Counted from the stretch's first letter, positions 1,269 through 16,397 are shown. The stretch is DNA of 16,397 bases from an uncultured Verrucomicrobiota bacterium (GCA_964514435.1 CAZEQV010000042.1:1-16397), one strand, 5' to 3'. Program-made: numbers and translations. The notes: generated by a model not told the origin, from the letters alone.

Positions 1269-2216
1269 CTACTTTGGCGGTTCGACGAGCTGCTGCAACT
1301 TTTCGTCGGCGGTCAGATACTGCGCGACACCCGTGGCGGGGCCGACGCCGCTGGCTTCAGTCGTGGTTTGCCGGGCTTGGGCGACGATGTCGAGGAAGAA
1401 CGCCTCCAAATCGCGCCGGGGATGTTCCAGCGTCGGTTCGCTGCCGAGTTCCGCGCGAGCCGCCGCGAGGATACGCTGCAGCGACTCCGCCGGCAACTCC
1501 GGCAACGCCAGCCGGTATTGCGACTTCTGTTCGAGCAACTCGTTGATCGTGCCCTGCGCCTGAATCTTGCCGTTGTAAAGAATCGCCACCCGGTCGCACA
1601 CGTCCTCCACATCGGCAAGCAGATGCGATGACAGTATCACCGTCTTGCCGCGCGCCGCGAGCGCCTTGATCAAGTCCTTCACCTGCCGGCAACCGATGGG
1701 GTCGAGGCCGGAGGTCGGCTCGTCGAGGATGACGAGGTCCGGATCGTTGATGAGTGCCTGCGCGAGGCCGATGCGGCGCGCCATACCTTTGGAAAATTCG
1801 CCGACTTGCCGGCTGTGCGCGTGGCGGAGGCCGATCATATCGAGCAACTGCGCCGTGCGCTCCCGGCGTTCGCCGGCCGGCAAGTCGAACAACATCCCGT
1901 AAAACGTCAGCGTCTCCCGCGAAGTCAGATACGGATAACTGTAGGTTTCTTCCGGCAAGTAACCGATGCGTTTCTTGGTCTGGACATCGCGCGGCGAACG
2001 GCCGAGCACGCGCAGTTGGCCGCGGGTCGGATGCAACAGCCCGAGGATCATCTTGATCGTGGTGCTCTTGCCGGACCCGTTCGGGCCGAGCAACCCGAAG
2101 ACCTCACCGGCGCGCACTTCAAAAGAAACGTCGTTGACCGCCCGGACTTTCGGCCGCCGCCAAAAATCGGTGAAGACTTTGGTGAGATGCGCCGCTTCGA
2201 TGATCGGATCATTCAT
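1269..2216 (-). CDS. ABC transporter ATP-binding protein (ABC-2 type exporter ATPase)
   Basis: Walker A GPNGSGKST, signature FSKGMARR, Walker B LVILDEPTSGLD and H-loop SSHLL are all present. The true ATG at 2216-2214 (MNDPIIEAAHL) is preferred over the TTG at 2231. This start overlaps the upstream ParE stop by 8 nt. Confidence 0.92.
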   Translation of the reverse strand: MNDPIIEAAHLTKVFTDFWRRPKVRAVNDVSFEVRAGEVFGLLGPNGSGKSTTIKMILGLLHPTRGQLRVLGRSPRDVQTKKRIGYLPEETYSYPYLTSRETLTFYGMLFDLPAGERRERTAQLLDMIGLRHAHSRQVGEFSKGMARRIGLAQALINDPDLVILDEPTSGLDPIGCRQVKDLIKALAARGKTVILSSHLLADVEDVCDRVAILYNGKIQAQGTINELLEQKSQYRLALPELPAESLQRILAAARAELGSEPTLEHPRRDLEAFFLDIVAQARQTTTEASGVGPATGVAQYLTADEKLQQLVEPPK

Positions 2217-2511
2217 CCAGTCGCTCCTCAATTGTGGCAGGTTCCCGCGCCAGATGGAGAATGGCTTTCACAACGATGCGCTCTTGATGAAGCTGGTAAT
2301 AGACACCGTAGGGAAAGGTGCGCAACAAAACACGCCGATGCACGGCATCCACTTGCGGAACCGACTCGGGGAATGCTGCCACCTGCCGCAATGCCTCGTC
2401 CAATGCCTCCAAAAAACGCAATTCCAAACCCACTCCTTGTCGCGCATACCACTGACACCCGTTCCGAATATCCTGCTCCGCGTTTGAGCGGATCACGATG
2501 CGCCGGCTCAT
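2209..2511 (-). CDS. Type II toxin-antitoxin system ParE/RelE family toxin
   Basis: The 100-aa product MSRRIVIRSNAEQDIRNGCQWYAR...FPYGVYYQLHQERIVVKAILHLAREP has the ParE-like fold signature. The internal ATG at 2511-2509 was verified. Its start overlaps the antitoxin stop as ATGA. Confidence 0.8.
   Translation of the reverse strand: MSRRIVIRSNAEQDIRNGCQWYARQGVGLELRFLEALDEALRQVAAFPESVPQVDAVHRRVLLRTFPYGVYYQLHQERIVVKAILHLAREPATIEERLDE

Positions 2512-2725: not shown

Positions 2726-2729
<4 letters not shown>
2508..2729 (-). CDS. Putative addiction-module antitoxin (small helical 'addiction module component' family, pairs with ParE/RelE)
   Basis: The 73-aa acidic product is MSKLMIPEVERLSVADKLQLIDQLWSDVAAHADEIPVPEWHRRILAERHQEFLKNPEAGEPWEV. 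It sits immediately upstream of the toxin and overlaps it. Its ATG at 2729-2727 overlaps the TGA stop of the P-type ATPase. Confidence 0.72.
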
Positions 2730-4643
<1,914 letters not shown>

Positions 4644-4657
<14 letters not shown>

Positions 4658-5159
4658 AGGCGGCGGAAGAGTGGATGGTTGGATGAGTGGAAGGATGGAT
4701 GGGGGAAAGGGTGGAAGATTGAGGGACTTCGTAGGCGGCATTGGATTCGCGGACGATGAAACTTTCGTTCCAATCACCCTCTTCCAGTTTGTGCTGGAGT
4801 GATTCGATGAGCCTCTTGAGACCATTCTCCATCGTATAGGCAATGGCATCGCATTTTTCGAATTGGTCCGGGGTGATCTGGTTGCTGCGGCGATAGGCGT
4901 GGAGGCCGGAAACGGTTTCGCCGGCGGAACCGAGCGCAATGTTGAGGTGCTGGAGATATTCTTTCAAGGTGCGCCGGCAGTAGCCTTCCGCGATGTTGCG
5001 ATGGATGGAATCGGCAGCGGCCATCTGGTTGGCGGCGATGCGTCGTAATTCGTAGGGAAACGAGCGGAAGATGTCGCAGGTGAGGACGTAGTATTCAATC
5101 GCATCCTGCCAAACAACAAGTTGCCGGTATCCACGATTGATGTTCCGTCGGGGACTCAT
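4644..5159 (-). CDS. Four helix bundle protein (Avd / 23S rRNA-intervening-sequence protein family), copy A. Its C-terminal tail is encoded by the repeat array.
   Basis: The core YRQLVVWQDAIEYYVLTCDIFRSFPYELRRIAANQMAAADSIHRNIAEGYCRRTLKEYLQHLNIALGSAGETVSGL is typical of this family (NIAEG...K.F...L..A.GS..E). The ATG at 5159-5157 was verified (MSPRRNINRG). The last ~30 codons (LSPIHPSTHPTIHSS) are read from the GGATGG array. The stop at 4644 lies 14 nt inside the ATPase start. Confidence 0.75.
4666..4726. repeat. Degenerate GGATGG/GGAAGG heptamer-like tandem array; the downstream (3') arm of the inverted-repeat pair around four-helix gene A
   Basis: Plus strand reads gaagagtggatggttggatgagtggaaggatggatgggggaaagggtggaagattgaggga. 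This is the reverse complement of the array at 5160-5246. Confidence 0.75.
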
Positions 5160-5246
5160 CCACCCTTCCATCCTTCCATCCATCGTTTCCTCCATTATTC
5201 CATCCCTCCCATCTCCCACCTGTCCATCCTTCCATTCTTCCCTCAC
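5160..5246. repeat. CCATCC/CCTTCC heptamer-like tandem array; the upstream arm of the inverted-repeat pair around four-helix gene A
   Basis: Plus strand reads cacccttccatccttccatccatcgtttcctccattattccatccctcccatctcccacctgtccatccttccattcttccctcactcc. It spans exactly from the HflK-like stop (5243-5245) to the four-helix A ATG (5159). Confidence 0.75.
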
Positions 5247-6256
5247 TCCGCCCCTCCGATCGGTTTCGGTTCTGGTGTGAGCAGCAGCCGCAGTTCTTGC
5301 TGGCCGTGCTCGTTTCGGTGGATGAGGAACTTCTGGTCCACGTTGCTGAGCGTGCGGCGGAGCGTGTCTTGGAGCAGCGTCCGCGCGATGATGTCGGGGT
5401 TTTTCTGGTATTGCTCGTAAACTTTGGTGAAGTAATCCGCGCTTGCGCCAACCTCGGCCACGACGCGGCGTTTGTAGGCTTCGCCTTCGGCGATAAGCCG
5501 GGCGGCTTCGCCTTGCGCTTCGTTCAACGTGCGCGTGGCGAGCGCGCGCGCCGCGCTGATCTTGCCGCTGCGTTCCTGCTCCGCCTCGATGACCGCGCTG
5601 AACGCGGCGGCGACTTGCCGGGGCGGCAACAGGGCGAGCACGTCCACACGCTCAATCCGCACCCCAAGCCCCAGCGCATCCACCCGGCGGCGCAACTCAC
5701 CATCCACCGCGTCGCGCAACGCCTCGATCTCGGTCCGCAACGCTTGATCCACGGGGAACCGCGCCGTGCATTTGACGATGGCGTGGTCAAGCTCGCGCTG
5801 GAGAATGGCGGACGGGTCTCTCAGCCGGAAACTATACGTTTCCAAATCCACGACCGTGTAACGGACGGCCCATTTGGCGTGGATCAGGTTGGCGTCGCCG
5901 GTCAGGGTGTAACCATCGGCACCGGGCTGCAACGTCGCGGCGCCCGAGTTCTCACGAGGCATGAACGTGCCGGTTTCCACGGCTTGCACCCGCTCGGTCG
6001 GGATGCGGACGATTTCCGCGACCGGCTTGGGCCACGTCCAATGCAGGCCGGGACCTTTCAACCGGTCCGCACCCATGCCGGCAATCTTGCCGAACACGAG
6101 AACGTAGGCGCGTTCGTGTTGGCCGACGATGAAGACGCCGGAGAACAGGTACGCGACCACGACGCCGACCATCACCCAGCGTAACGCGCGGAAACTCGTC
6201 GTCAGCGCGCCGGTGAGGGCGGCTTGGCCGGTATCGTTGTGTGTGGTCTGAGTCAT
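5243..6256 (-). CDS. SPFH/Band-7 family protein, HflK-like
   Basis: An N-terminal TM segment (WVMVGVVVAYLFSGVFIV) is followed by an SPFH domain (ERAYVLVFGKIAG...GLHWTWP) and a coiled-coil region (AEQERSGKISAARALA...AEGEAYKRRVVAEVGA). The ATG at 6256-6254 overlaps the upstream TAA by 1 nt. Confidence 0.75.
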   Translation of the reverse strand: MTQTTHNDTGQAALTGALTTSFRALRWVMVGVVVAYLFSGVFIVGQHERAYVLVFGKIAGMGADRLKGPGLHWTWPKPVAEIVRIPTERVQAVETGTFMPRENSGAATLQPGADGYTLTGDANLIHAKWAVRYTVVDLETYSFRLRDPSAILQRELDHAIVKCTARFPVDQALRTEIEALRDAVDGELRRRVDALGLGVRIERVDVLALLPPRQVAAAFSAVIEAEQERSGKISAARALATRTLNEAQGEAARLIAEGEAYKRRVVAEVGASADYFTKVYEQYQKNPDIIARTLLQDTLRRTLSNVDQKFLIHRNEHGQQELRLLLTPEPKPIGGAE

Positions 6257-7149
6257 TATTTTTTTGGGAGCGCCTTGTCGCCTTGGAGCAGGTCGAACGG
6301 TTCGGTTTCGCTGCTCAACACGACGGTGGATTTGGTCTTCAACGTCAATTCGAGGACTTCCAATTTCCGGAGGAACATCGCCAGCTCGGGGTTCTTCTCG
6401 AACACCTGATACGATTCCGCCGCCTTCGCATCGCCCTCGGCGCGGATGCCTTTGGCCTCGGCTTCCGCTCTGGCGAGGAGTTGATTGCGGGTGCTGTCGG
6501 CTTCGGCGCGCAACTTGATCGCTTCCCCTTCGCCCTCGGACCGGTAACGCTCGGCAATCTCCTCGCGTTCGGCGCGCATCCGGGCGAACACCTTTTCCGT
6601 GATGGATTCCGGCAACCCAATTTTGCGGACGCCGAGGAACTGCACCTCGACGCCATACCGGCTCACCGCCTCCGGTTGGACTGCCGCCAGCATCTGCTGT
6701 TCGATGGCCTCGAACTGCACGGCGGCGGCGTTGGTGTTGATCAAGCCGGCAAAGGGAAACTGGCCGAGCACGGCGTTTTTCTGACTGCGCAGCAGGCCGT
6801 CGAGATTGCGCTCGGCTTGTTCGACCGTGCCGACGCGTTCGAGAAATTGAATCGGCTGCTGAATCCGCCAGCCGGCATAGACGGCGACGAGGATGTTCTT
6901 GCCGTCGCGGGTCAAAGTTTCTTCAAACGCCCCTTCGAGCGTATGCGTCCGGTTATCGAACCGGTAAATCCGTTGCACCGGCCACGGCCAGCGCGTGTAC
7001 AGCCCGGCCGCGGTGAGTTCGCGCACCGGCTTGCCGAATGTGGTGACAACGACGGCCTCGCCTTCGCGCACCGTGAACAGCACTTGGAGCAGCACAAACA
7101 TCACGGCCACCAGCAGGCCGACGGTTAAAAGCAACGTGTTTCGTTTCAT
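6256..7149 (-). CDS. SPFH/Band-7 family protein, HflC-like
   Basis: MKRNTLLLTVGLLVAVMFVLLQVLFTVREGEAVVVTTFGKPV...RMRAEREEIAERYRSEGEGEAIKLRAEAD parallels the E. coli HflC architecture. A GGAGG sequence sits 7 nt upstream of the ATG 7149-7147. Confidence 0.75.
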   Translation of the reverse strand: MKRNTLLLTVGLLVAVMFVLLQVLFTVREGEAVVVTTFGKPVRELTAAGLYTRWPWPVQRIYRFDNRTHTLEGAFEETLTRDGKNILVAVYAGWRIQQPIQFLERVGTVEQAERNLDGLLRSQKNAVLGQFPFAGLINTNAAAVQFEAIEQQMLAAVQPEAVSRYGVEVQFLGVRKIGLPESITEKVFARMRAEREEIAERYRSEGEGEAIKLRAEADSTRNQLLARAEAEAKGIRAEGDAKAAESYQVFEKNPELAMFLRKLEVLELTLKTKSTVVLSSETEPFDLLQGDKALPKK

Positions 7150-7165
7150 CGGATAACCTCCGTGG

Positions 7166-7229
7166 AAATGACGAATGACGAATGACCAATGACGAAAGAA
7201 TGACGAGGGCGGAAATGACGAATGGATGG
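7166..7229. repeat. AATGACG heptamer tandem array; the downstream arm of the inverted-repeat pair around four-helix gene B
   Basis: gaaatgacgaatgacgaatgaccaatgacgaaagaatgacgagggcggaaatgacgaatggatgg. It is the reverse complement of the array at 7585-7633. It ends in ggatgg, the unit of the element-A arrays. Confidence 0.8.
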
Positions 7230-7231
7230 CA

Positions 7232-7630
7232 TCAGTCGGCGCTCCTTCCGTTGCGCATGATCGCGGCGAAGATCAGATGCAATTCTTTGGCTTCTTGCCA
7301 GAGTTTGCGCGCGGTTTCTTTGTGGGATGGTTCGGCGGTGGCAATCATACGGAGCCAGTGTTTCGTTTCGCGCGCCTCGCGTTTGCAGATGCTGATTTTA
7401 TGCAGAAAATCTTTCTTCGAGTGTGCGTCATCCGCTTCCACGTAGTTGGCCCCGACGCTGGTTCCCGACCGCACTAACTGACTCACCAATGGTAGCGTAA
7501 CCGGCGTGCTAGGCACGCTCCTGCAAAAACCAATGATTGCCTCGCCAAAAACAGCCGTGCGTTCTTCGAGGTCAAATTTCGGCTTCGTCATTGGACATTC
7601 TTTCGTCATTCGGATTTCGTCATTCGTCAT
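7232..7630 (-). CDS. Four helix bundle protein (Avd / 23S rRNA-intervening-sequence protein family), copy B
   Basis: FDLEERTAVFGEAIIGFCRSVPSTPVTLPLVSQLVRSGTSVGANYVEADDAHSKKDFLHKISICKREARETKHWLRMI are family motifs. Three in-frame ATGs (7630, 7609, 7591) are all created by AATGACG repeat units. The ATG at 7630 overlaps the upstream TGA as ATGA, and the likely functional start is 7591 (MTKPKF). Confidence 0.8.
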   Translation of the reverse strand: MTNDEIRMTKECPMTKPKFDLEERTAVFGEAIIGFCRSVPSTPVTLPLVSQLVRSGTSVGANYVEADDAHSKKDFLHKISICKREARETKHWLRMIATAEPSHKETARKLWQEAKELHLIFAAIMRNGRSAD

Positions 7631-7633
7631 TTC
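7585..7633. repeat. CGTCATT heptamer tandem array; the upstream arm of the inverted-repeat pair around four-helix gene B
   Basis: tcgtcattggacattctttcgtcattcggatttcgtcattcgtcatttc. The TGA stop of the upstream SPFH-fusion gene (7629-7627) is itself the first TGA of an AATGACG unit. Confidence 0.8.
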
Positions 7634-9432
7634 TTCGCACCCAGATCGAACAACTCGGGGCGCAGTTTCTCTTCAAAGTTCAGTTGATAGACTTCATTCG
7701 ACGCCGAGGCCGGCACGATAAACTTCCGCGTATCGGTCAACGCCCGCGCCACCGTGTCGAGATACAGGCTGGTGCGGAAAACTTGCGGCGATTTCTTGGC
7801 GGTCTCGGCTTGGATGAGAAACCGCTTGGCCTCGGCGGCGGAAATCTCCGCGCGCTGGGTCCGGTAAGCGGTCGCTTCAAGATTCGCCTTCGACGCCTCG
7901 GCGCCGGCCAGCGTCACGGTCTTGCCGGCTTGGGCGCGGGCGGCGAGCACGGTGGCTTCCTTTTGTTCGAGCGCACCGATGACGGATTGAAACGCCTCGG
8001 CGACTTGCGTCGGCGGATGCACGCCTTGGAGGCCCACGAACACGATGTGAACGCCGAGTTGCCGGCGGTCGGCTTCGGCTTGGATGCGTTGGCGGAGCGA
8101 CTCGGCGATGCGGGCTTGGCCGGGACCCATGATCTCAAACAGGTCGTGCGTGGCGGCTTCGAACGTGAGGCTCCGGTAAGCGATTTGCTCGATCAGGCGA
8201 CCGGCATCGGCGTTGTGGTACGCGAACGCCATCACGTTGGTGATTTGATATTCGACCGGGATATTGAAAGCGACGAGGTTGACCGGCACGCTGCCCTCGC
8301 CGACGCGCGGGGCGGCGACGAGAAATTGGTCTTCGCCTTCGGCGTGCGGGATATTCCACTGAATGACGGCTGGCTCGACGCCGGTGCTTTGGGGTTGGCC
8401 GATGCGAAAATTGAGGACGCGCTTGGCTGGGAAGCGTTGCACGACCTCGAACGGCCACGGGGCTTTCAGGTGAAACCCGCTGTCGAGGTGCGTGACCGGC
8501 TTGCCGAAGCGTTCGAGGATACCGCGTTCGTCGGGGCCGAGGAACACGAGGCAGGAAAGCAGATAGAGCGCGACGATCTGGAAGATGACCAGCGGCAACA
8601 ACGCGCCTTCGAGGAACCGGAACAACCACGTCTCGGAGACTTTGAAGCCGAATTGATAATCGAGCGCCCCGGCGACGTTGCGCGCCCAAGCGCCGGGGGC
8701 GATGAGCAGCTCGCCCAGCCGACTTTCATACGACCGGCAAGGTTCGCCGCGTCGGGGCCGGTAAAGTTCGGCGATGAAGTTGAGGAGGTTTTCCGCCGCC
8801 AAAACCACGAGGAAGCCGGTGAGGATGACGGCCGCCCAACGGTCCGCGGCCGGGAATCCAGCCTCGCCGGCCAACGTTGCCGCACCGGCCATCAACGACG
8901 CGATGCACGCCACGCCCAACGCGATACCGGCCCCGCGCAGCAGTCTTCCCAGTCCGAGCAGATACCGGCTGAGCAGGAACATGGTGAATGCCTGTCCGCC
9001 CAACGCCGCCAACGTCATCAGGCGGTGAGCCGGTGGGGTGGCCGGCAAGTTCAGATGCCGGTAGAGCCACCAAGTCACGGCGGCCAAACCCATGGCCAAT
9101 AGAAGGGCGATGGCGGGGACGAAGAACCGCTCGAATTGTTGCCGCGTGCGGGCGACGGTGAACAGTTCGGGCGCGGTTTCCCGGTCGAAGATCGAAGCGC
9201 TGGTTCGTTCGCGTTCCAGCAAGGCGGCTTCTTGTTTTTCTTCTTCGGCGCGGCGGGCGAGGCGTTCACGGATGAGAACCAGCAAGGACACGGCCAATGC
9301 CAGAGCGGGATAAGCGAGCAACGCCGGCAAGACACGGAGATGCGTCGCGCGGGCGAGCACGGCGTCCACGACCAGCCACGCCACGGCCAGCAGCGCCGCC
9401 AGCAGGGCGATTCGTTCGTTGCGTTTGTCCAT
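7627..9432 (-). CDS. Polytopic membrane protein fused to a C-terminal SPFH/Band-7 (HflK-like) domain
   Basis: Start taken at the verified ATG 9432-9430 (MDKRNERIALLAALLAVAWLV), which overlaps the upstream TGA by 1 nt. About 6-7 predicted TM helices in the first ~330 aa are followed by an SPFH domain (PDERGILERFGKPVTHLDSGFHLKAPWPFEVVQ...). A coiled-coil Ala/Glu-rich tail (ARAQAGKTVTLAGAEASKANLEATAYRTQRAEISAAEAKRF) ends the protein. Confidence 0.7.
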   Translation of the reverse strand: MDKRNERIALLAALLAVAWLVVDAVLARATHLRVLPALLAYPALALAVSLLVLIRERLARRAEEEKQEAALLERERTSASIFDRETAPELFTVARTRQQFERFFVPAIALLLAMGLAAVTWWLYRHLNLPATPPAHRLMTLAALGGQAFTMFLLSRYLLGLGRLLRGAGIALGVACIASLMAGAATLAGEAGFPAADRWAAVILTGFLVVLAAENLLNFIAELYRPRRGEPCRSYESRLGELLIAPGAWARNVAGALDYQFGFKVSETWLFRFLEGALLPLVIFQIVALYLLSCLVFLGPDERGILERFGKPVTHLDSGFHLKAPWPFEVVQRFPAKRVLNFRIGQPQSTGVEPAVIQWNIPHAEGEDQFLVAAPRVGEGSVPVNLVAFNIPVEYQITNVMAFAYHNADAGRLIEQIAYRSLTFEAATHDLFEIMGPGQARIAESLRQRIQAEADRRQLGVHIVFVGLQGVHPPTQVAEAFQSVIGALEQKEATVLAARAQAGKTVTLAGAEASKANLEATAYRTQRAEISAAEAKRFLIQAETAKKSPQVFRTSLYLDTVARALTDTRKFIVPASASNEVYQLNFEEKLRPELFDLGAKK

Positions 9433-10376
9433 CAGGCTTTGGTCTCGACGTTGCGGAACAGGAGCATGCCCAAACTCAGCACCCCAAGCAAATAGAACAT
9501 AGCATAGCCCGTGACTTGCCGGACATACGCCCATGGCACGGTCCCCTCGCCCGCGAGCGCGTCCGCCGTCCAAAAATGCTGCCAGTTCGGCAGGAGATTA
9601 TAGAAGAACGCGGCGAGGATGTTCGTTGGCGCATGTCGTCCGAGGAGGTAATCGGTGATCAATCCGGCCAGAAAGACGACGGTGCAAATAGCCAGGGTGG
9701 GCACGAGGTCAAGCCGGCTTGTCAGCGCCAAGGCGATTCCCGCCAACACGATGGTCGCCAGCGAAACGAGCGCCGATGAAGGCAGGACACGCCAAGAAAA
9801 ACCTTCGCGACCGGTGGCCAGCCACAACATTATGAAAATTAGGGGAATGAGCAGAACGAGCGCGGTGGAGACGAAATGCCAACGCGTGAGAATATTCAGT
9901 GCCGCCGCGACACCCAACGCAACGGCAATCGCCGTGATTGTTCCACCGGCGACCATCCAATCCACCTGATAGGCCTCGTGGCTGGCTTGGGAACTGAGCA
10001 ACGTCCCAAGTGCGATGACCGCGTCGAAGAGACTGAGCACCAAGACCACGCCGGCAAACTTGGCGAGAAAATACAGTTCACGACTGATGGGCTTCACCAA
10101 GACCACCGCCAAAGTGCCTCTTTGGATTTCCTTCCCCAGGGCGAAGCTGGCCGTGTAACCAGCCAGCACCAGACCGGCGACGAAATGCAACGCCAGCGCG
10201 CTGTCTTGGACGACCTGTTGGGCCTGCCCCATGGTGTGCATCAACAAGGCCGGCATCAGGGCTATGAACACCAAGCAGCTCACTGTCAACAGCAGCAGAA
10301 ATGGTTGCCGGACCGCTTCAAACAGAGTTAACGTCGCAACCGCTGCGAATCGCTTGAGAGAGTGGTGAAAGCTCAA
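9432..10376 (-). CDS. ABC-2 family transporter permease (paralog of the 1-1131 product)
   Basis: MSFHHSLKRFAAVATLTLFEAVRQPFLLLLTVSCLVFIAL...KEIQRGTLAVVLVKPISRELYFLAKFAG, with about 6 TM segments. The start codon at 10376 is TTG (no ATG nearby), so the exact start is uncertain. It is the first gene of the minus-strand operon. Confidence 0.65.
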   Translation of the reverse strand: MSFHHSLKRFAAVATLTLFEAVRQPFLLLLTVSCLVFIALMPALLMHTMGQAQQVVQDSALALHFVAGLVLAGYTASFALGKEIQRGTLAVVLVKPISRELYFLAKFAGVVLVLSLFDAVIALGTLLSSQASHEAYQVDWMVAGGTITAIAVALGVAAALNILTRWHFVSTALVLLIPLIFIMLWLATGREGFSWRVLPSSALVSLATIVLAGIALALTSRLDLVPTLAICTVVFLAGLITDYLLGRHAPTNILAAFFYNLLPNWQHFWTADALAGEGTVPWAYVRQVTGYAMFYLLGVLSLGMLLFRNVETKA

Positions 10377-10692
10377 ATGTTCTTAACACATATGACACGA
10401 CCCCATGTTAGGCAAGTGGATACCCCGACCGGTTGCGACTGTAATGTCTGCGCCAATGAACAACGATTGAACGGAATGGCATGAACTCAACTTCATTCTT
10501 GAAAAACAACTTCAAGTGTAGCGGCTGGAGAGTGTCACTCTTGAAACGTTTTGAGCCGGCATGAGTGTGTGTCGCCATTACGGAACTCTAATGTCGTAAT
10601 TCAGGAGTATCCCTGCGGGAATCGTTCCATAATAATAAAACCCAATCACGGCTGTTGGTCATCCTGACCAGCGTCGATAGTTTCAAGCGTAC
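10377..10692. promoter_or_regulatory. Divergent intergenic promoter/operator region between the minus-strand operon and the plus-strand membrane-protein gene
   Basis: This is the only substantial non-coding stretch and is visibly AT-richer (cataataataaaaccc). It contains the inverted repeat CTTGAAaaacaacTTCAAG (10498-10516), a second tcttgaaa copy 42 bp later with the palindrome aaacgttt (10538-10552), and a small ccctgcggg hairpin near 10610. Confidence 0.4.
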
Positions 10693-12705
10693 ATGGATCA
10701 AGCGACAAATCAAATACTGTCGGCTCGGCGCGTGGCGGCGGCGGTGACGGTGGCCTTGCTCGGAAGCGCCATTGTCTGGGTGGCGGTGCCCTATAATAAT
10801 TTCTGGCTCAAGAATACCTACTTGTCCGACACGTTTCTTCCAGAGATTGCCATCGCGTTTCTATTGCTGCTGGTGTTGGTGGTGAATCCGTTGTTGCATG
10901 TGCTCCGGCCGGCTTGGGTGCTGCAACGGCGGCAGGTGGCGTTGATTGCGAGCCTGATGTTGTTTGCGGCGGTGCTGCCCAGTAACGGCTTGATGCGGAT
11001 GTTTCCCCGATTCGTTGCGCAATCGAATCAGGGCATGAATCAGAATCCGACGACGGCGCGCATCGCCGCGGAGGCTGGGTTCCGGCAGGCCTTGTTCCCC
11101 GATCCGTTGCCGGCGCGCGGGGCGGATGGGAGCGTGCAGACGCATGAGACGCCGGTCTCGGACCAGTTTCTGGATGAATTGGCCGAAGGCGCGACGATTC
11201 CGTGGTCGGCGTGGATCTGGCCCATGACGGCGTGGGGGCTGTTGATCGTCGCGCTGTGGACGATGATGATTGGGCTGGGGGGTATGGTGTATCCGCAGTG
11301 GCGGGACCGGGAACGGTTGCCGTTTCCGCTGTTGAACGTCTATCACGCGCTCATCGGCGATCCCGACAACCAGTCAAAAGGTTTGTTGCCGTCGGTATTC
11401 CGAAGCCGGGGCTTTTGGATTGCGGCCATCGTGGTGTTCATCATCCACGCCACGCGCGGGTTGAGCGCGTTCACCGGGGCGTTCCCCGAATTTCCTTTGT
11501 CGTGGAACCTGGAGGCATATTTCACGGACAGCATTTTTCGGCACACCACCATTGCGCTGAAGCGGCAATCCATCTTTTTCGCGCTGATCGGCGTGGCGTA
11601 TTTCATTCCGAACCGGTATGCGATTTCAGTGTGGGGGTGGGTGGTGGGGTATGCGTTGTATGTGATGGCGGGCCGGGCGTTCGTGCCGGCGTTCAATGAG
11701 GGCCAGGCGGCCGACCAGTCGTTTGGCGCGTTGCTGGCGATTGCGGCGTGGGTGTTGTGGTTGGGGCGGACGCATTGGGCGCAGGTCGGCCGCGCGATGC
11801 TCGGCCGGGCCGGTGAGGGAGCGGAAAGCCGCCGGGATGGGCTGGCGGGGTGGATGTTTGCTGGCGGGTGTGCCGGGATCGTTTGTTGGTTGTATTGGGC
11901 GGGGTGTTCGTTGTGGTGGAGTCTGCTGGCCATGTTCGGCTGCGCGGTGGTGACGTTGTTGATGGCGCGCATCATCGCGGAGACGGGGATACCGGTGTTG
12001 TGGGTCGGTCAGATGAGCGTGGGCCAACTGACCGCGCTGTTTCCGCTCTCGTGGCAATCGCCCGTGATTCTCTATTTCACGGGGGTATTTCACGTTTTGT
12101 TGACGCGGGCGTCGGCGATGAGCGCGGCGGTGATCACCACGCTCTCGTTGGGGATGGATCGAAAGGCGTCCGCCGCGAATCATTCCCGGCTGCTCTTGGC
12201 CGGGTTGGTGGTGTTGGTGCTGGGGTTCGTGGTGTGCGGCGCGGTGCATCTGAACATGGGCTACTACAGCGCGGACATCACGACGGAGGCCAAAACGGAC
12301 GCGAGCCGGCTCAACGATTGGGTGCGGGCGGATCGGGCGACCTTCGATTTCTTCACGATCAAGCGATGGCATCAAGGAGTTGGGGCGACGATTGCCGGCG
12401 GGTTGTTGTGGGTGTGTTCGCGTTTTCCATCCTGGCCGATACATCCGGTGGGGATTATTTTTTGCCAGCTCAGCATCGGCAATCTCATCTGGTTCAGCAT
12501 TTTTGCGGGTTGGCTGCTGAAGACGGCCATTACCGGGCTGTTTGGGGGCGGGGCGTACCGGAAAGCGCGGCCGGTTTTCTTGGGATTGATCTTTGGTGAA
12601 TTGTTGGCGGTCATCGTCTGGACGTTGGTGCCGGTGATCATTATTTGGGTGACCGGCGCGGACCCGGCCACGGTGCCGCGCTATATGTTGATGCAATATC
12701 CGTAA
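10693..12705 (+). CDS. Large polytopic integral membrane protein of unknown function (670 aa, more than 12 predicted TM helices)
   Basis: ATG at 10693 and TAA at 12703-12705. Hydrophobic helices run throughout (VALLGSAIVWVAV, IAIAFLLLLVLVV, WGLLIVALWTMMIGLGG, FWIAAIVVFIIHA, AISVWGWVVGYALYVMAG and others). No recognisable catalytic motifs. Trp/Gly-rich. Confidence 0.7.
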   Translation: MDQATNQILSARRVAAAVTVALLGSAIVWVAVPYNNFWLKNTYLSDTFLPEIAIAFLLLLVLVVNPLLHVLRPAWVLQRRQVALIASLMLFAAVLPSNGLMRMFPRFVAQSNQGMNQNPTTARIAAEAGFRQALFPDPLPARGADGSVQTHETPVSDQFLDELAEGATIPWSAWIWPMTAWGLLIVALWTMMIGLGGMVYPQWRDRERLPFPLLNVYHALIGDPDNQSKGLLPSVFRSRGFWIAAIVVFIIHATRGLSAFTGAFPEFPLSWNLEAYFTDSIFRHTTIALKRQSIFFALIGVAYFIPNRYAISVWGWVVGYALYVMAGRAFVPAFNEGQAADQSFGALLAIAAWVLWLGRTHWAQVGRAMLGRAGEGAESRRDGLAGWMFAGGCAGIVCWLYWAGCSLWWSLLAMFGCAVVTLLMARIIAETGIPVLWVGQMSVGQLTALFPLSWQSPVILYFTGVFHVLLTRASAMSAAVITTLSLGMDRKASAANHSRLLLAGLVVLVLGFVVCGAVHLNMGYYSADITTEAKTDASRLNDWVRADRATFDFFTIKRWHQGVGATIAGGLLWVCSRFPSWPIHPVGIIFCQLSIGNLIWFSIFAGWLLKTAITGLFGGGAYRKARPVFLGLIFGELLAVIVWTLVPVIIIWVTGADPATVPRYMLMQYP

Positions 12706-12737
12706 TGCGGAATGCGGAAATCGGAATGCGGAATCAC
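12704..12737. repeat. Solo AATGCGG heptamer tandem array at a gene junction
   Basis: aatgcggaatgcggaaatcggaatgcggaatcac lies immediately after the TAA of the upstream gene. It supplies both candidate ATGs (12705, 12726) of the downstream gene. It is the same unit type as the arrays flanking four-helix gene B, but has no inverted partner and no enclosed gene. Confidence 0.7.
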
Positions 12738-15700
12738 AATACGACAACCTGGGGAAAGGCGCGGGGCGGCGAGCTTCGACCGCATTCTGCTTTTCGCATT
12801 GCGCCTTTGGCGGTCTGGCTGGTTTTGTGGTGCGGTGTTGCGGCGGCGTCCGATGACGATTTTGCGGCGCGCGTGCGGGCGGACACGGAATGGTTGAGCG
12901 GCTACGAGACACGTCAAGTGGGGACCCCAGCGCACCGGCGCGTGCAGGATGATTTGTTGGCCAAGCTTCGGGCGATCCCGGGCGCGCGGGTCTGGACGGA
13001 TGAGTTTCCGGTCGTCGTGCCGGTCCACACGGAGACGTATCTGGAGGTGGCCGGGCGGCGGGAAACGATCTATCCGCTGTGGCCGGATGTGGCGCGGTTG
13101 AATACGACGCCCCCGGACGGGATTAGCGGGAAGTTGATTTATGTGGGGGATGGGGACTACGGGCGATTGCCGGCGCGGAGTCTGCGGGGCAACATCGCCG
13201 TGATGGAGATGTCGGCCTGCGCGGATTACCCGCGAGTGTTCGACTTTGGCGCGTCGGCGGTGATTTTTCTGGAATCAGCGAAGGTCGGCGAGGTGATCAC
13301 CTCGCAACAATCGCTGTACAAGCCCCGGTACTATGTAAAGGCCGGGGCGTTGGCGGACGCGTTGCGCGCCGGCCCGGTTTCGGCCGGCAAGATTGTGTGT
13401 CGGGGCCGGTGGGAGACGGTCATGGCGCGCAACATCTATGCGGCCGTGAACGCGTCCGGTGCGAAAGGCGAGGCGCCGTACGCGGTCGTCGCGCCGTATG
13501 ATTCAATGAGCCGGGTGGTGGGGGTGGCACCGGGCGCTGACAGCGCGTTGGACTGCGCGATTGTGTTGAATCTGTTGCGGGACGTGGCCGGTCAGGCGCC
13601 GCGGCCGTTGCTGTTCGGGTTTGTGGACGCCTACCATATTAATCAACTGGGGATACGGCGGATGTCGGCGATGTTGACGAGCACGCCGAAGTGCCAAACC
13701 CGCGAGGCCTACCGGAAGATCGAACAGAAGGAACTCGACGCCTACCGGGAAGCGGCGAAGGAACTGGCGAAGTTTGACACCGTCGAGGCGGGACTGGCCG
13801 GGTTGAATAACCGGTACGCGGCGCCGCAGTTGCGCCGCTTGTTCAAGGACGCGGTGGGCACGGATTTGCTCCGGCTGCGCGAGCTTCAGGGAGAATTGCG
13901 CCTGGCGTCGCTGCGGATTGAGACGGAGAACTCACCGGCGATGCGGGTGCAGATGCTGGGGGCGTTGGAGAACAGCGCCGCCTGGCTGCTGGCGCATGTG
14001 GCGGGCGAGTTGACGACCGAGCAGCGCGCGGAGTTGGTGGCGGCCCGGCAGTTTGTGGCCGGACAAGATGTGGCGTCCGAGCCTTGGCAGGAGCTGGCCG
14101 GGGCGCGGGAACGGGCGAAGGGTTTGTTGGCGATTTGCACGGGCCCGTTGCGGGCGCGGAATCGGGTGTTGGAGGCGGTGTTGACGGGTGACCGGGAGGT
14201 ACCGGCGGAGTTTCTGCCGGTGGCGCGGACGATCTGGCAGGATGTGGCCGAGCGGGTGCGGGAACAGGTGCGGGAACAGGAGCAGCGGGCCGCGTTTTTC
14301 GAGCCGTTGGACCGCTTGCGGCGTGAAGTCGCGGAGCATTTTCAATTGCACACCGATGGCGTGGACCGGGCCGTGTGCAAGTTTGTCGTGGGCGTTGACC
14401 TGTCCGACTGCGGCGTGTTGGTGGGGCCGGGCATGCTGTGCGGTTACAACCGCATCGAACCGACGGACAAAGACTTGATGCGCGTGTTGAAGCGGGTGGT
14501 GAAACGCGGAGAAATCTGGCCGGCCCATTCGCCGGAGCGCAAGGTGGTCAATCTCGGCGCGATCGAAGGCCGGGTGGGTGGCAGCGGCGACATCGGGCAG
14601 CGGGCGTTGATCACGTCGGCGGCGCGGAGCTTCTTGTTGCCGGGCGTGACGTGGGTGACCGACGACGCGTTGCGCCAGCGGATGGATTCGCCGATGGACC
14701 GGTTTGACCAAGTGGATTGGAGCCGGATTGATCCGCAGTTGCCGGCCACGCGGCGTTTTCTGGATTGGTTGTTCACGTCCAAGGAGTTTGTGCCGGTCGC
14801 GAAGTCCGCGGAGGAAACCGCGGCGGCGTGGCGGCACGGGATGGGGCGCGTGGTCAATGTGTCGGCCGGCGAGACGGTGCCGCGCGTGCCGCAGCGCGGG
14901 TTCTTGGTGACGTTGATTGCCTATGGAGCGAACCGCGATGGCATTCGGCGGCAGGAGTTCGCGTGGACGGGGTACGACGGATCGTTTCGGATTCCGCTGA
15001 TGTGCGGCGAGATCAACGCCAACGTGCTAAACGGCAAAAACTTCAACATGGAGGCATTCAAACTCGATGAGTCGGGCGCGATTGTCGAGTCGTTGACCAA
15101 GACCGAGTCGCTCGTGGCGACGCGGTTGGCGACGACGTTCAGCGTCAGCACCAAGCCCGGCGAGCAACTGCCGCGCGCGGTGACGTTTGAATGCGCGGAG
15201 TTGAACGGGCCGGCATTCTTCGACGCGCGGTTCATGGAGCCGCTGACGCAGGCGATGTTGCTGGACGCGGGGCGCGGCGGGCCGCCGAAGAAGTCGTTGT
15301 TCAAAATGGACAGCACCGGCCAGATGTGGGGGCTGGTTCCGCCGGGAATGCGCTGGCAACTGGTGGTGCGCGCCGGCGCGGCGGGCGTGCGCATGGCGTT
15401 GCTCAACGCGGTGCCGGACGGCCGGCAGCGGGGACTGGATCTGCGTTCCACGTTCCAGCGCGGTTTCGAGGTGGAGGAACGGTTGCCGTCCCTCCCGGCG
15501 CACCTGGCGGCGCAAGACATCTATGTGTTGAACGATTGGCGGCTGACGGATTTCCGCGCGGCCGGGATTCGCAGCGAGAAGATTGACCAGATTCGCGCCG
15601 GCACGAAGAGGGAGTTGGAACTGGCCGCGGCGGCGCAGGCGGCGGATGACGCGGCCCGGTTGCAGCGCGCGGCGAACCGGGCGTTGGCCAGCGAGATCCG

Positions 15701-16397
15701 GGCGTACCGGGCGGTGTCGGATACCGGGCAGGACATCGCGCGCGGGGCGATTTTTCTGATGTTGATGCTCGTGCCGTTCAGCGTGGCGATGGAACGGTTG
15801 CTGTTTGCGTTCGCGCGGATCGGTTCGCAAATCGGGGGCGCGATCGGGATTTTTGCCGGGATGACGGTGTTGTTGTGGAGTTTTCATCCGTCGTTTCGGA
15901 TCAGCGCGCAGCCGTTGGTGATCGTCATGGCGTTCACGATTTTGGCGATGAGCGTGGCGGTGATCAGCATGGTGTTGTCGCGGTTCCGCGGGTCGGTCCG
16001 GGAGTTTCAGAGCGCGCTGGCCGAAGGCGCCGGGGCGAAGATGGGCCGGGGCGGGTTGCTCGGTAGCGCGGTGTTCCTGGGCATCGCCAACATGCGCAAA
16101 CGCCGGGTGCGGACGGCGTTGACCAGCGCCACGATCGTGTTGGTGACGTTTGCGCTGCTGTGTTTTTCCTCGGCGAGCAGTTATGTGGACAAGAAGGAGT
16201 TTCGACTGGAGAACGTGACCGCCGAGCGCGCGTCGGTGTTGGTGCGGCGGCCGTCGTTTGGGCCGATTACGTGGCCGGCAGCGGCGGGGATTGGCAATTT
16301 GTTGGGGGCGTCCGATGTGGTGGTGGGCGTCCGAGCGTGGTTCGTGCCCGGGCTGGGCGACACGGAGCAGACCATGAAGGCCGGAAACATGGAGATC
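12705..16397 (+). CDS. Giant secreted/membrane protein, 3'-truncated (more than 1230 aa). It has a signal peptide, a PA domain, a degenerate M28-peptidase-like domain split by a long helical insert, and MacB/FtsX-type permease TM modules.
   Basis: The frame is open from ATG 12705 (1-nt overlap with the upstream TAA) to the window end, verified by manual translation. The signal peptide reads RIAPLAVWLVLWCGVAAAS|DDDF. The PA-like segment is GKLIYVGDGDYGRLPARSLRGNIAVMEMSACADYPRVFDFGASAVIFLES. The M28-like motifs have catalytic residues replaced (VVAPYDSMSRVVGVAPGADSALDCAIVLNLL, FGFVDAYHINQLG, VNLGAIEG). A C-terminal membrane bundle is present (IFLMLMLVPFSVAMERLLFAFARIGSQIGGAIGIFAGMTVLLW). A second MacB-like TM1 reads GIANMRKRRVRTALTSATIVLVTFALL. 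Confidence 0.75.
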   Translation, partial: MRNAEIGMRNHNTTTWGKARGGELRPHSAFRIAPLAVWLVLWCGVAAASDDDFAARVRADTEWLSGYETRQVGTPAHRRVQDDLLAKLRAIPGARVWTDEFPVVVPVHTETYLEVAGRRETIYPLWPDVARLNTTPPDGISGKLIYVGDGDYGRLPARSLRGNIAVMEMSACADYPRVFDFGASAVIFLESAKVGEVITSQQSLYKPRYYVKAGALADALRAGPVSAGKIVCRGRWETVMARNIYAAVNASGAKGEAPYAVVAPYDSMSRVVGVAPGADSALDCAIVLNLLRDVAGQAPRPLLFGFVDAYHINQLGIRRMSAMLTSTPKCQTREAYRKIEQKELDAYREAAKELAKFDTVEAGLAGLNNRYAAPQLRRLFKDAVGTDLLRLRELQGELRLASLRIETENSPAMRVQMLGALENSAAWLLAHVAGELTTEQRAELVAARQFVAGQDVASEPWQELAGARERAKGLLAICTGPLRARNRVLEAVLTGDREVPAEFLPVARTIWQDVAERVREQVREQEQRAAFFEPLDRLRREVAEHFQLHTDGVDRAVCKFVVGVDLSDCGVLVGPGMLCGYNRIEPTDKDLMRVLKRVVKRGEIWPAHSPERKVVNLGAIEGRVGGSGDIGQRALITSAARSFLLPGVTWVTDDALRQRMDSPMDRFDQVDWSRIDPQLPATRRFLDWLFTSKEFVPVAKSAEETAAAWRHGMGRVVNVSAGETVPRVPQRGFLVTLIAYGANRDGIRRQEFAWTGYDGSFRIPLMCGEINANVLNGKNFNMEAFKLDESGAIVESLTKTESLVATRLATTFSVSTKPGEQLPRAVTFECAELNGPAFFDARFMEPLTQAMLLDAGRGGPPKKSLFKMDSTGQMWGLVPPGMRWQLVVRAGAAGVRMALLNAVPDGRQRGLDLRSTFQRGFEVEERLPSLPAHLAAQDIYVLNDWRLTDFRAAGIRSEKIDQIRAGTKRELELAAAAQAADDAARLQRAANRALASEIRAYRAVSDTGQDIARGAIFLMLMLVPFSVAMERLLFAFARIGSQIGGAIGIFAGMTVLLWSFHPSFRISAQPLVIVMAFTILAMSVAVISMVLSRFRGSVREFQSALAEGAGAKMGRGGLLGSAVFLGIANMRKRRVRTALTSATIVLVTFALLCFSSASSYVDKKEFRLENVTAERASVLVRRPSFGPITWPAAAGIGNLLGASDVVVGVRAWFVPGLGDTEQTMKAGNMEI

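Follow-up and report, generated by a model that had tools for sequence, protein, structure and literature searches.

A predicted pseudo-peptidase on a MacB/FtsX-type permease, encoded with OPT-fold permease candidates in a locus shared by uncultured Verrucomicrobiota and related bacteria

Two adjoining genes at the end of a Verrucomicrobiota sequence

The stretch of DNA analysed here, called the window, is a sequence of 16,397 nucleotides from an uncultured Verrucomicrobiota bacterium (GCA_964514435.1 CAZEQV010000042.1:1-16397). Its right-hand part carries two genes, which we call A and B. Gene A encodes a polytopic membrane protein and gene B encodes a giant FtsX-family protein with a putative pseudo-peptidase ectodomain. 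The B frame is still open at the end of the window, so that 1231 residues of about 1700 are visible. Related loci, designated L001 and so on, comprise homologue-bearing contigs and 79 species-level genome loci, and their conserved gene order is A-B-C-D-E-F-G-H. It is near certain that the unit is an eight-gene operon with the component anatomy described below, and not the two-gene pair proposed in the initial annotation. Genes C to H lie outside the window, and their presence here is extrapolated from relatives whose B proteins are 63-78% identical to the window's (L004, L005). The features of the window are listed in Table 1.

Table 1. Features of the A/B locus in the window (positions counted from the first nucleotide)
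Feature	Position	Strand	Basis or remark
Intergenic region between the divergent ABC-2 permease gene (-) and A	10377-10692	.	Presumed operon promoter/5' leader
Gene A, polytopic membrane protein, DUF6785+DUF6784, predicted OPT/Yellow-Stripe transporter fold	10693-12705	+	670 aa
TAATG stop/start overlap of A and B	12703-12707	+	Read directly from sequence
Tandem heptamer AATGCGG x4.4	12704-12734	+	Spans the A stop and first codons of B; Tandem Repeats Finder score 48
Gene B, 5' 72% (1231 of about 1700 aa), giant FtsX-family protein with predicted pseudo-peptidase ectodomain	12705-16397	+	Open frame
B aa 1-47, long n-region and Sec-type signal peptide (...LVLWCGVAAA/SDDD)	12705-12845	+	Hydrophobic segment aa 29-47
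B aa 48-125, N-terminal part of M28-like domain	12846-13079	+	Profile alignment to 2ek8; secondary structure of AlphaFold (AF2) model
B aa ~126-226, protease-associated (PA) domain inserted in M28 fold	13080-13382	+	
B aa 227-325, M28 core first half, degenerate APYDS (P264/D266), APGAD (D279), DAYHINQLG (Y310/H311)	13383-13679	+	
B aa 331-545, all-helical insert, 8 helices, between former Glu-Glu motif and next M28 strand	13695-14339	+	AF2 DSSP, pLDDT mostly >90
B aa 556-700, M28 core second half, VGVDLSD (invariant D565), RMDSPMDRFD (D661)	14370-14804	+	
B aa 709-900, beta-rich periplasmic domain	14829-15404	+	AF2 DSSP
B aa 913-1010, helical stalk, three long helices into membrane	15441-15734	+	AF2 DSSP
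B aa 1011-1090, three transmembrane helices, not FtsX-like	15735-15974	+	Hydropathy
B aa 1137-1155, TM1 of canonical MacB/FtsX module, preceded by LGIANMRKRRVRTALT	16113-16169	+	Hydropathy
B aa 1156-1231, start of periplasmic core domain of FtsX module, cut by window end	16170-16397	+	~75 aa

Gene A is predicted to encode an OPT-fold permease

Protein A had been described as an uncharacterised protein with 12 or more transmembrane (TM) helices. Its polytopic character stands, with about 14-16 helices in the AF2 model (pLDDT 89.8, pTM 0.91), but it is not a complete unknown. When the protein was compared with Pfam models for domains of unknown function, it scored above the gathering thresholds for both DUF6785 (PF20581; 1.5e-70, 238.6 bits versus a cut-off of 25) and DUF6784 (PF20580; 1.6e-18, 67.2 bits versus a cut-off of 26.4). 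The sole meaningful structural neighbour of the model is the barley Fe(III)-phytosiderophore transporter HvYS1 (Foldseek E 1e-8, probability 1.0, TM-score 0.56-0.62), which shares 11-14% identity with A. Structurally, the OPT family is represented by YS1. Therefore, A as modelled is a very divergent OPT-fold permease and not a fold-less unknown. Only the fold search showed this relationship: A has no match to the OPT model PF03169 at E<=1, and a family profile built from 43 homologues did not match any PDB sequence. YS1 itself is a homodimer that transports by a proton-coupled, elevator-like mechanism (PMC9691689).

The head of B has the M28 fold and a predicted dead active site

The N-termini of B homologues carry short classical signal peptides with AxA-like sites and look like cleavable Sec signal peptides and not TM anchors; for B, cleavage and TM topology are predicted from sequence. 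The initial annotation placed PA and M28-like folds at residues ~50-700, and this was borne out for residues of about 48 to 700. A family profile of 66 homologues matched the PA-M28 aminopeptidase 2ek8 in the PDB at 8e-13 over positions 30-315 and nicastrin at about 5e-4; the pseudo-peptidases transferrin receptor, GCPII and GPAA1 were matched less strongly but still clearly. The head has the alpha/beta fold of M28, and the PA fold sits in a loop of the peptidase domain with the motif pattern GxIAL..RG....K...A...GA.AVI. Alone, B stays below the threshold of the Pfam M28 model (PF04389; 12.7 bits versus a cut-off of 21.3, E 0.11, aa 243-309 only). When the helical insert was removed from the head alignment, the resulting chimera again aligned with PDB entries only over the first half of the M28 domain. 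The insert was confirmed in the middle of the domain, at about 215 residues instead of the 250 first estimated. Its helices are 7-31 residues long and more bundle-like than the long coiled coil of EnvC-type proteins. The beta-rich domain that follows the M28 core has no Pfam or PDB sequence match.

Active-site positions were mapped by HMMER alignment to 2ek8, by MAFFT and hhalign against two intact M28 genes from related loci, and by column counts over the 66 homologues. For the second half (D565 and D661), the sequence alignments behind the mapping are weak but consistent with the fold match. The first His of HxD corresponds to P264 (Pro in 47 homologues, Ala in 10, Gln in six, Gly in two and Thr in one), so that the motif reads P264-Y-D266 and never has His in the close family. 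The bridging Asp is D279, kept in 58/66. The general-base Glu is replaced by Y310 (Tyr in 47, Asp in 10, Gln in four, Asn in two, Phe in one), and the neighbouring ligand Glu by H311, a position held by His in 34/66, by Gly in 19/66 and by others in the rest. The Asp of NxDMxG is the invariant D565, and the last His is replaced by the nearly invariant D661. Of the co-catalytic ligand set His/Asp/Glu/Asp/His, B thus keeps only the two Asp residues, D279 and D565, and a Tyr stands where the general base would precede the ligand Glu. The substitutions that had been read by eye, AHxDS to APYDS and the Glu-Glu motif to DAYHINQLG, hold on proper alignment, as does the wider claim that catalytic residues are substituted, with both His and the Glu-Glu pair lost. 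The third motif had been misplaced; the equivalent of NxDMxG is VGVDLSD (aa 562-568) and not NLGAIEG.

These results support the prediction that B carries a giant, catalytically dead PA-M28 ectodomain on a MacB/FtsX-type permease. The acidic residues of the former site are nearly invariant: D266, D283, D308, D568, D661 and D665 are each conserved in at least 90% of the homologues, and D565 in all of them. This argues for a former active site that would have been maintained as a binding pocket and is not a decayed relic.

The membrane part of B

After the helical stalk, the three TM helices at aa 1011-1090 are followed by a basic cytoplasmic linker and by TM1 of the FtsX module. The former three were considered as a second FtsX module and rejected, since hhalign against the family's own FtsX domain gave a probability of 0.6%. 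Full-length homologues of about 1600-1750 residues continue with a MacB-like periplasmic domain, one PF02687 domain and a C-terminal tail of ~150 residues; PF02687 is found in 71 such proteins, and in B of L001 it scores 7e-12 at aa 1444-1552. In orthologues, TM2 to TM4 follow TM1 and the periplasmic domain as in other FtsX domains. The family profile matched YtrF (3e-8), MacB (8e-7), LolF and LolC in the PDB. The matches to MacB, LolC/E, YtrF and LolF lie downstream of TM1, and the TM1 region of MacB was aligned only below significance. For the periplasmic domain, the matches are weak (MacB_PCD at E 0.1 in L001 B, LolC/E periplasmic domains at E 0.3-0.5), and PF12704 is precomputed for homologue P0066. 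Since the window holds only TM1 and the start of the periplasmic domain, the type VII ATP-binding cassette (ABC) membership of its B rests on full-length relatives that are 60-78% identical. The fusion to a MacB/FtsX-type permease thus stands, but the plural "modules" of the initial annotation reduce to a single canonical one that lies mostly beyond the window.

B aa 1012-1187 (15738-16265) also resemble the PADLOC model CARF_LolE_TM (1.5e-6), which indicates that the combination of a three-TM extension and FtsX TM1 also exists in LolE-like proteins fused to CARF domains. A known defence system was considered on this account and rejected, as the PADLOC resemblance is confined to the TM region.

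An operon of eight genes

Conservation was counted over those of the 79 loci with enough sequence. Gene C follows B in 58/63 assessable loci, D is present in 53/61, E in 50/61, F in 52/59 and an ABC ATPase in 46/56. Gene A is found directly upstream of B in 38/67 and anywhere in the locus in 43/67, which bears out the suggested co-conservation of A and B across genomes. In every locus that has upstream sequence and a B with at least 50% identity to that of the window, A adjoins B; it is absent mainly from the divergent versions in Tepidisphaerales, Phycisphaerae and Sumerlaeota. Some loci have another order (B-C-A-D, B-A-C), with the genes remaining together. Over one common set of 34 loci, median identity to the L001 proteins was 71% for C, 51% for F, 49% for E, 41% for B, 37% for A and 35% for D.

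The loci come from Verrucomicrobiota, Kiritimatiellia, Lentisphaerota/Victivallales, Planctomycetota (Phycisphaerae, Tepidisphaerales, Pirellulales, Brocadiia), Sumerlaeota and Omnitrophota, with single bins from Nitrospirales, Anaerolineales and Desulfobacterales. All those examined are metagenome-assembled genomes, and no cultured host was seen among the named cluster members. An exhaustive phmmer search with the head against 1.84 billion representative proteins gave 1118 matches at E<=1e-3, 628 at E<=1e-10 and 73 at E<=1e-30; among the top 150, lengths of 1450-1790 residues predominate. Public annotations of the components read "hypothetical protein", "FtsX-like permease", "DUF6785 family protein" or "peptide transporter". 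No searchable paper uses the names DUF6785 or DUF6784, and no literature was found on the combinations FtsX+PqqD+M28, OPT+FtsX or pseudo-peptidase-M28-ABC. Each part is of a known kind and the combination is undescribed, in agreement with the initial annotation.

Two kinds of variant locus were seen. In L054 (1-9784), five DUF6785 paralogues stand in tandem directly upstream of B, and L093 (2399-8962) has three. Such tandem arrays suggest that the A-type permease diversifies against a constant B-C core. Six loci (L134, L138, L140, L142, L143 and L164) have the order B-A-C and a shorter B of about 1540-1590 residues. Two of them, L138 and L164, keep the first His of HxD (AHYDA), with the Glu-Glu pair still absent.

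The partner proteins C to H

Protein C, the most conserved component, is a polytopic protein of 665 residues and a second OPT permease. Its assignment rests on PF03169, which matches 16/34 orthologues (best 6.3e-12), and on NCBI names such as "peptide transporter" and "OPT/YSL family transporter" for some homologues; C of L001 itself has no Pfam match, and the C profile did not match any PDB sequence. Between A and C, profile-profile comparison found a match at the level of a motif only (ERLPFPLL versus EELPFPMAP; E 0.003, probability 7-17%), and homology of the two is unproven at the sequence level.

Protein D is soluble and ~327 residues long, and its profile has no relatives in the PDB, Pfam or NCBIfam. 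It is Trp-rich (invariant W34, W45, W73 and W232) and lacks a signal peptide, as seen in L001 (17196-18549) and its orthologues. The D gene overlaps by 11 nt the gene of E, a PqqD-like protein of ~126 residues (PF05402 at 2.5e-8). This overlap suggests a D-E complex, and D and E probably pair. E also has weak NCBIfam matches to lasso, SCM and GeoRSP chaperone models. Apart from this PqqD-like protein, the locus shows no sign of a cluster for ribosomally synthesized and post-translationally modified peptides (RiPPs): there is no precursor peptide or maturase family, and the genes are tightly packed.

Protein F (~218 residues), for which MacB and LolCE models gave matches, is an FtsX protein with four TM helices and without a periplasmic domain. 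The ATPases G and H, both of MacB/LolD type, match LolD and MacB nucleotide-binding domain models at 1e-65 to 1e-68 and have intact Walker A, signature and Walker B motifs. High scores were also obtained for them with ATPase models of MacB, DevA, DarD and bacteriocin exporters. These two genes of MacB/LolD/FtsE type lie downstream in orthologous loci. As had been noted at first, the cognate ATPase is not in the window, whose sole ABC ATPase gene (1269-2231, minus strand) is of DrrA/ABC-2 type and not of MacB type.

Peptidases and other genes around the operon

The families that recur most often beside the operon are M42 aminopeptidases (8 loci) and M24 peptidases (7 loci). An M24 gene directly follows the last ABC gene in 5/44 loci and lies between A and B in L107. 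Genes for wall enzymes (LytM/M23, amidase, NlpC/P60 or other) were found neither in nor next to the operon in the 79 loci. In three further contexts, a DUF6785 gene adjoins a genuine MH-clan aminopeptidase gene. In L084, an intact PA-M28 gene and a DUF6785 gene share 8 nt; L085 has an intact M28 gene followed by a DUF6785 gene and a giant FtsX gene; and in L083, an M42 gene follows the DUF6785 gene. The motifs of the L084 and L085 M28 genes were confirmed to be intact. An iterated search seeded with the L084 enzyme recovered all B heads at 1e-44 to 1e-58, and the head probably descends from an active PA-M28 enzyme like this one. The M28 gene of L085 (6693-8399), in which all five metal ligands are intact, has TM-like hydrophobic segments inserted after the Glu-Glu pair, at the site of the helical insert of B, and may be an evolutionary intermediate.

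The A/B junction and the upstream genes

The TAA stop of A (12703-12705) shares its last base with the ATG of B at 12705, so the translational overlap described for this pair is present in the window. It is not general among relatives, in which the gene calls leave gaps of 59 nt (L001) and 14 nt (L002), and B of L004 begins 2 nt past the A stop. The heptamer AATGCGG that spans the junction provides two in-frame ATGs (12705 and 12726) and an unusually long N-terminal extension ahead of the B signal peptide. The repeat is absent from the closest relative, L004, whose B has a classical signal peptide of 16 residues. Repeats of 7 nt that lie on a start codon can invite slippage, which here could switch the expression of B, but four copies are weak evidence for this.

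The leader upstream of A has no open reading frame (ORF). Rfam gave no match across the whole window, nor for the leader alone even at E<=1, and thus no riboswitch clue; a scan of the leader for sigma-70 promoters found nothing above chance. The genes upstream of A are on the opposite strand and unrelated to A and B. They include an ABC-2 permease (9432-10376), a P-type ATPase (2726-4939) and the DrrA-type ATPase given above. Three consecutive SPFH/Band-7 (HflK-like) genes (5243-9573, minus strand) stand beside the ABC-2-type permease and the P-type ATPase, and the C-terminal half of the largest SPFH product (648 aa), which also has a long N-terminal extension, is HflK-like (NCBIfam 4e-35). 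Small genes for four-helix-bundle proteins of the "23S rRNA intervening sequence protein" or bAvd-like type (4644-5246 and 7232-7630, both minus strand) are interleaved with the SPFH genes, and in L001 a similar gene (20246-20704) separates the two ABC ATPase genes of the operon. These look like scattered insertions and not operon members. The region of A and B (10500-16397) has a strongly positive GC skew (~+0.2 to +0.26) and a negative AT skew; elsewhere in the window, the GC skew is mostly near zero, with ~+0.2 also around 3.5-5 kb.

A possible peptide capture and uptake complex

Most likely, the system handles peptides rather than the cell wall. The reading that we favour, at somewhat less than an even chance, is an ATP-assisted complex for peptide capture and uptake; its substrate and direction of transport are ones that we infer. 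The MacB, LolCDE and FtsEX motors use cytoplasmic ATP hydrolysis for movement in the periplasm, and their substrate is not translocated through the motor. By analogy, B, F, G and H would form a heterodimeric type VII ABC mechanotransducer in which ATP binding and hydrolysis in the cytoplasm move the dead PA-M28 head in the periplasm. The vestigial acidic pocket, with the PA domain as a lid, would bind ligands with a free amino terminus, such as peptides, without cleaving them. The head would then deliver these ligands to the OPT-fold permeases or gate them. Since YS1 is a homodimer, A and C may pair in the same way and carry the ligand over the inner membrane, after which the cytoplasmic D-E pair, with E as a peptide-binding domain of the PqqD/RRE type (RRE, RiPP recognition element), and nearby M24 and M42 aminopeptidases would act. 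The specific arrangement, in which a nicastrin-like dead aminopeptidase head on a type VII motor serves as the receptor that docks onto, loads or gates an OPT-fold heterodimer, is a doubtful proposal that we put forward tentatively.

Several points weigh against peptide uptake. To our knowledge, OPT importers are proton-driven and do not need an ABC partner, and the type VII ABC systems we know of serve extrusion, extraction or enzyme activation and not import. A is missing from 24/67 loci and is thus dispensable for the core. The linkage to M24 and M42 is limited to the window's own clade, roughly 12/79 loci. Stand-alone DUF6785 genes have diverse neighbours, mostly glycan-degrading or unrelated genes and not peptidases, and no universal partner was found for them, so the DUF6785 class need not be peptide-specific. 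The role given to the PqqD-like E is a guess, with no precursor-peptide gene present. H311, D279, D565 and D661 of the window's B could still bind metal. Also, C to H are absent from the window itself and known from relatives only.

The direction of transport could be the reverse. In an export or extrusion machine, a peptide or other product would cross the inner membrane, possibly via A and C after PqqD-like recognition, and a MacB-like motor would expel or process it with the dead head as a clamp. Characterised MacB-type systems (MacAB-TolC, LolCDE, the darobactin exporter) do act outward, the exporter-type model scores of G and H fit such a role, and PqqD-like domains, to whose lasso, SCM and GeoRSP chaperone models E has matches, normally bind the leader peptides of exported RiPPs. 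Nevertheless, the operon encodes neither a membrane-fusion protein nor an outer-membrane channel, precursor peptide or modifying enzyme, and its gaps are too small for a hidden ORF. The characterised OPT members are importers (PMC9691689), and the flanking genes encode catabolic peptidases, so we regard export as unlikely. The cargo could also differ. Uptake of glycan-derived or other non-peptide oligomers, with the head binding an amino sugar or another cationic ligand, would suit polysaccharide-degrading bacteria of the PVC group (Planctomycetes, Verrucomicrobia, Chlamydiae). The host phyla are known glycan degraders, and both the operon and stand-alone DUF6785 genes often lie among genes for glycoside hydrolases, sulfatases, SASA esterases, heparinase/alginate lyase and CBM9 proteins. 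However, such carbohydrate-active neighbours are ubiquitous in these genomes and not conserved beside the operon, C is a recognisable member of the OPT family of peptide and metal-chelate transporters, and we know of no OPT member that carries sugars; we consider this cargo quite unlikely. Metallophore or metal-chelate uptake, in the manner of Yellow-Stripe transporters with the acidic former site of B binding the metal complex, would account for HvYS1 as the only structural relative of A and for the Asp-rich cluster and His311 in the pocket of the window's B. This is a slim prospect, as genes for siderophore biosynthesis, TonB-dependent receptors or metal regulators are not conserved nearby and H311 is found in just 34/66 homologues.

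The remaining alternatives concern what the head does. The initial annotation likened B to FtsEX-EnvC, with a dead head relaying ATP-driven movement to cell-wall hydrolases or other envelope-remodelling enzymes. The permease and ATPases are of the same type as those of FtsEX, a dead peptidase-fold module lies in the periplasm as EnvC does, and a helical insert is present. This model is weakened because the fold of the head is M28 and not LytM/M23, because the 79 loci show no linked gene for an amidase, a LytM or NlpC/P60 protein or another wall enzyme, and because the conserved partners are transporters, namely OPT permeases beside a PqqD-like protein, with M42 and M24 on the flanks. The short, bundle-like helices of the insert also differ from an EnvC-type coiled coil. 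We therefore find the likeness to FtsEX-EnvC improbable as an account of function. Finally, B could still be an enzyme with a non-canonical site, such as a mono-metal hydrolase or a transferase, as D279, H311, D565 and D661 could coordinate one metal and some B-A-C variants (L138, L164) retain the first His. Against this, Tyr, Asp, Gln or Asn replaces the general-base Glu throughout, none of the 66 close homologues has either His ligand, and the Pfam M28 score falls below threshold; an active B is the least probable of the readings considered.

If the operon does couple such a motor to two OPT-fold permeases through a dead aminopeptidase head, it would add a new job and a new class of partner to the type VII ABC superfamily, now understood as motors for efflux, lipoprotein extraction and hydrolase control. 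An ATP-driven periplasmic motor would be coupled to proton-driven carriers, in a bacterial parallel to the eukaryotic pairing of a pseudo-M28 ectodomain with polytopic partners and an independent case, beside nicastrin and GPAA1, of M28 pseudo-enzymes as receptors of membrane complexes. It would also give DUF6785 and DUF6784 a fold and a functional context, and would provide the first functional handle on the bacterial OPT proteins of the PVC group, whose members are degraders that abound in sediments and mats and are for the most part uncultured. The family is sizeable, as the 628 clusters at E<=1e-10 for the head illustrate, and entirely unstudied.

Comparison with known systems

Among known systems, the motor is closest to the type VII ABC systems (MacB, LolCDE, FtsEX, YtrEF, BceAB). 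B resembles them in having TM1 followed by a periplasmic domain and by three TM helices with matches to PF02687, MacB, LolC, YtrF and LolF; the ATPases are of LolD/MacB type; and there are two different permease subunits, B and F, as with LolC and LolE. In contrast to these systems, B adds an N-terminal periplasmic head of ~960 residues and three TM helices, F lacks a periplasmic domain, the two ATPase genes are distinct, and there is no membrane-fusion, TolC, LolA or EnvC-type partner. We know of no type VII system with OPT-fold permeases as co-operonic partners. FtsEX-EnvC and its PcsB, RipC and CwlO equivalents likewise combine an ATP-driven FtsX-type permease with an inactive peptidase-fold module in the periplasm. 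EnvC, however, stands apart from the permease as a LytM/M23 protein, has a long coiled coil and activates amidases, whereas the dead domain of B has the M28/PA fold, is fused in cis and has no linked wall hydrolase among its conserved or recurrent neighbours.

The transporter and cytoplasmic partners also have known counterparts. Like the OPT/Yellow-Stripe-like family (PF03169, TC 2.A.67; HvYS1, 7wsr), C matches the Pfam model in about half of its orthologues, while A has no such match and is filed under DUF6785/DUF6784. No OPT member is known to us to work with an ABC system. E resembles PqqD/RRE proteins in its PF05402 match and, weakly, in the chaperone models; unlike their loci, the operon has no precursor peptide, radical-SAM enzyme or other maturase, and E overlaps D.

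For the head, the nearest active relatives are the PA-M28 aminopeptidases of Aneurinibacillus AM-1 (2ek8), P. aeruginosa (PaAP, 8ac7) and Aeromonas/Vibrio (AAP, 1rtq). Active relatives of this kind adjoin DUF6785 genes in L084 and L085, but B has lost both His ligands and the Glu-Glu pair, has gained a 215-residue helical insert and is fused to a membrane motor. Nicastrin of gamma-secretase, GPAA1 of the GPI transamidase and the transferrin receptor offer the other comparison, as inactive, membrane-anchored M28-fold ectodomains with polytopic partners that serve as receptors for a ligand or substrate. B differs from these eukaryotic proteins in being bacterial, in having transporters and not an intramembrane protease or transamidase as partners, and in its coupling to an ABC motor, and its dead domain probably arose independently of theirs.

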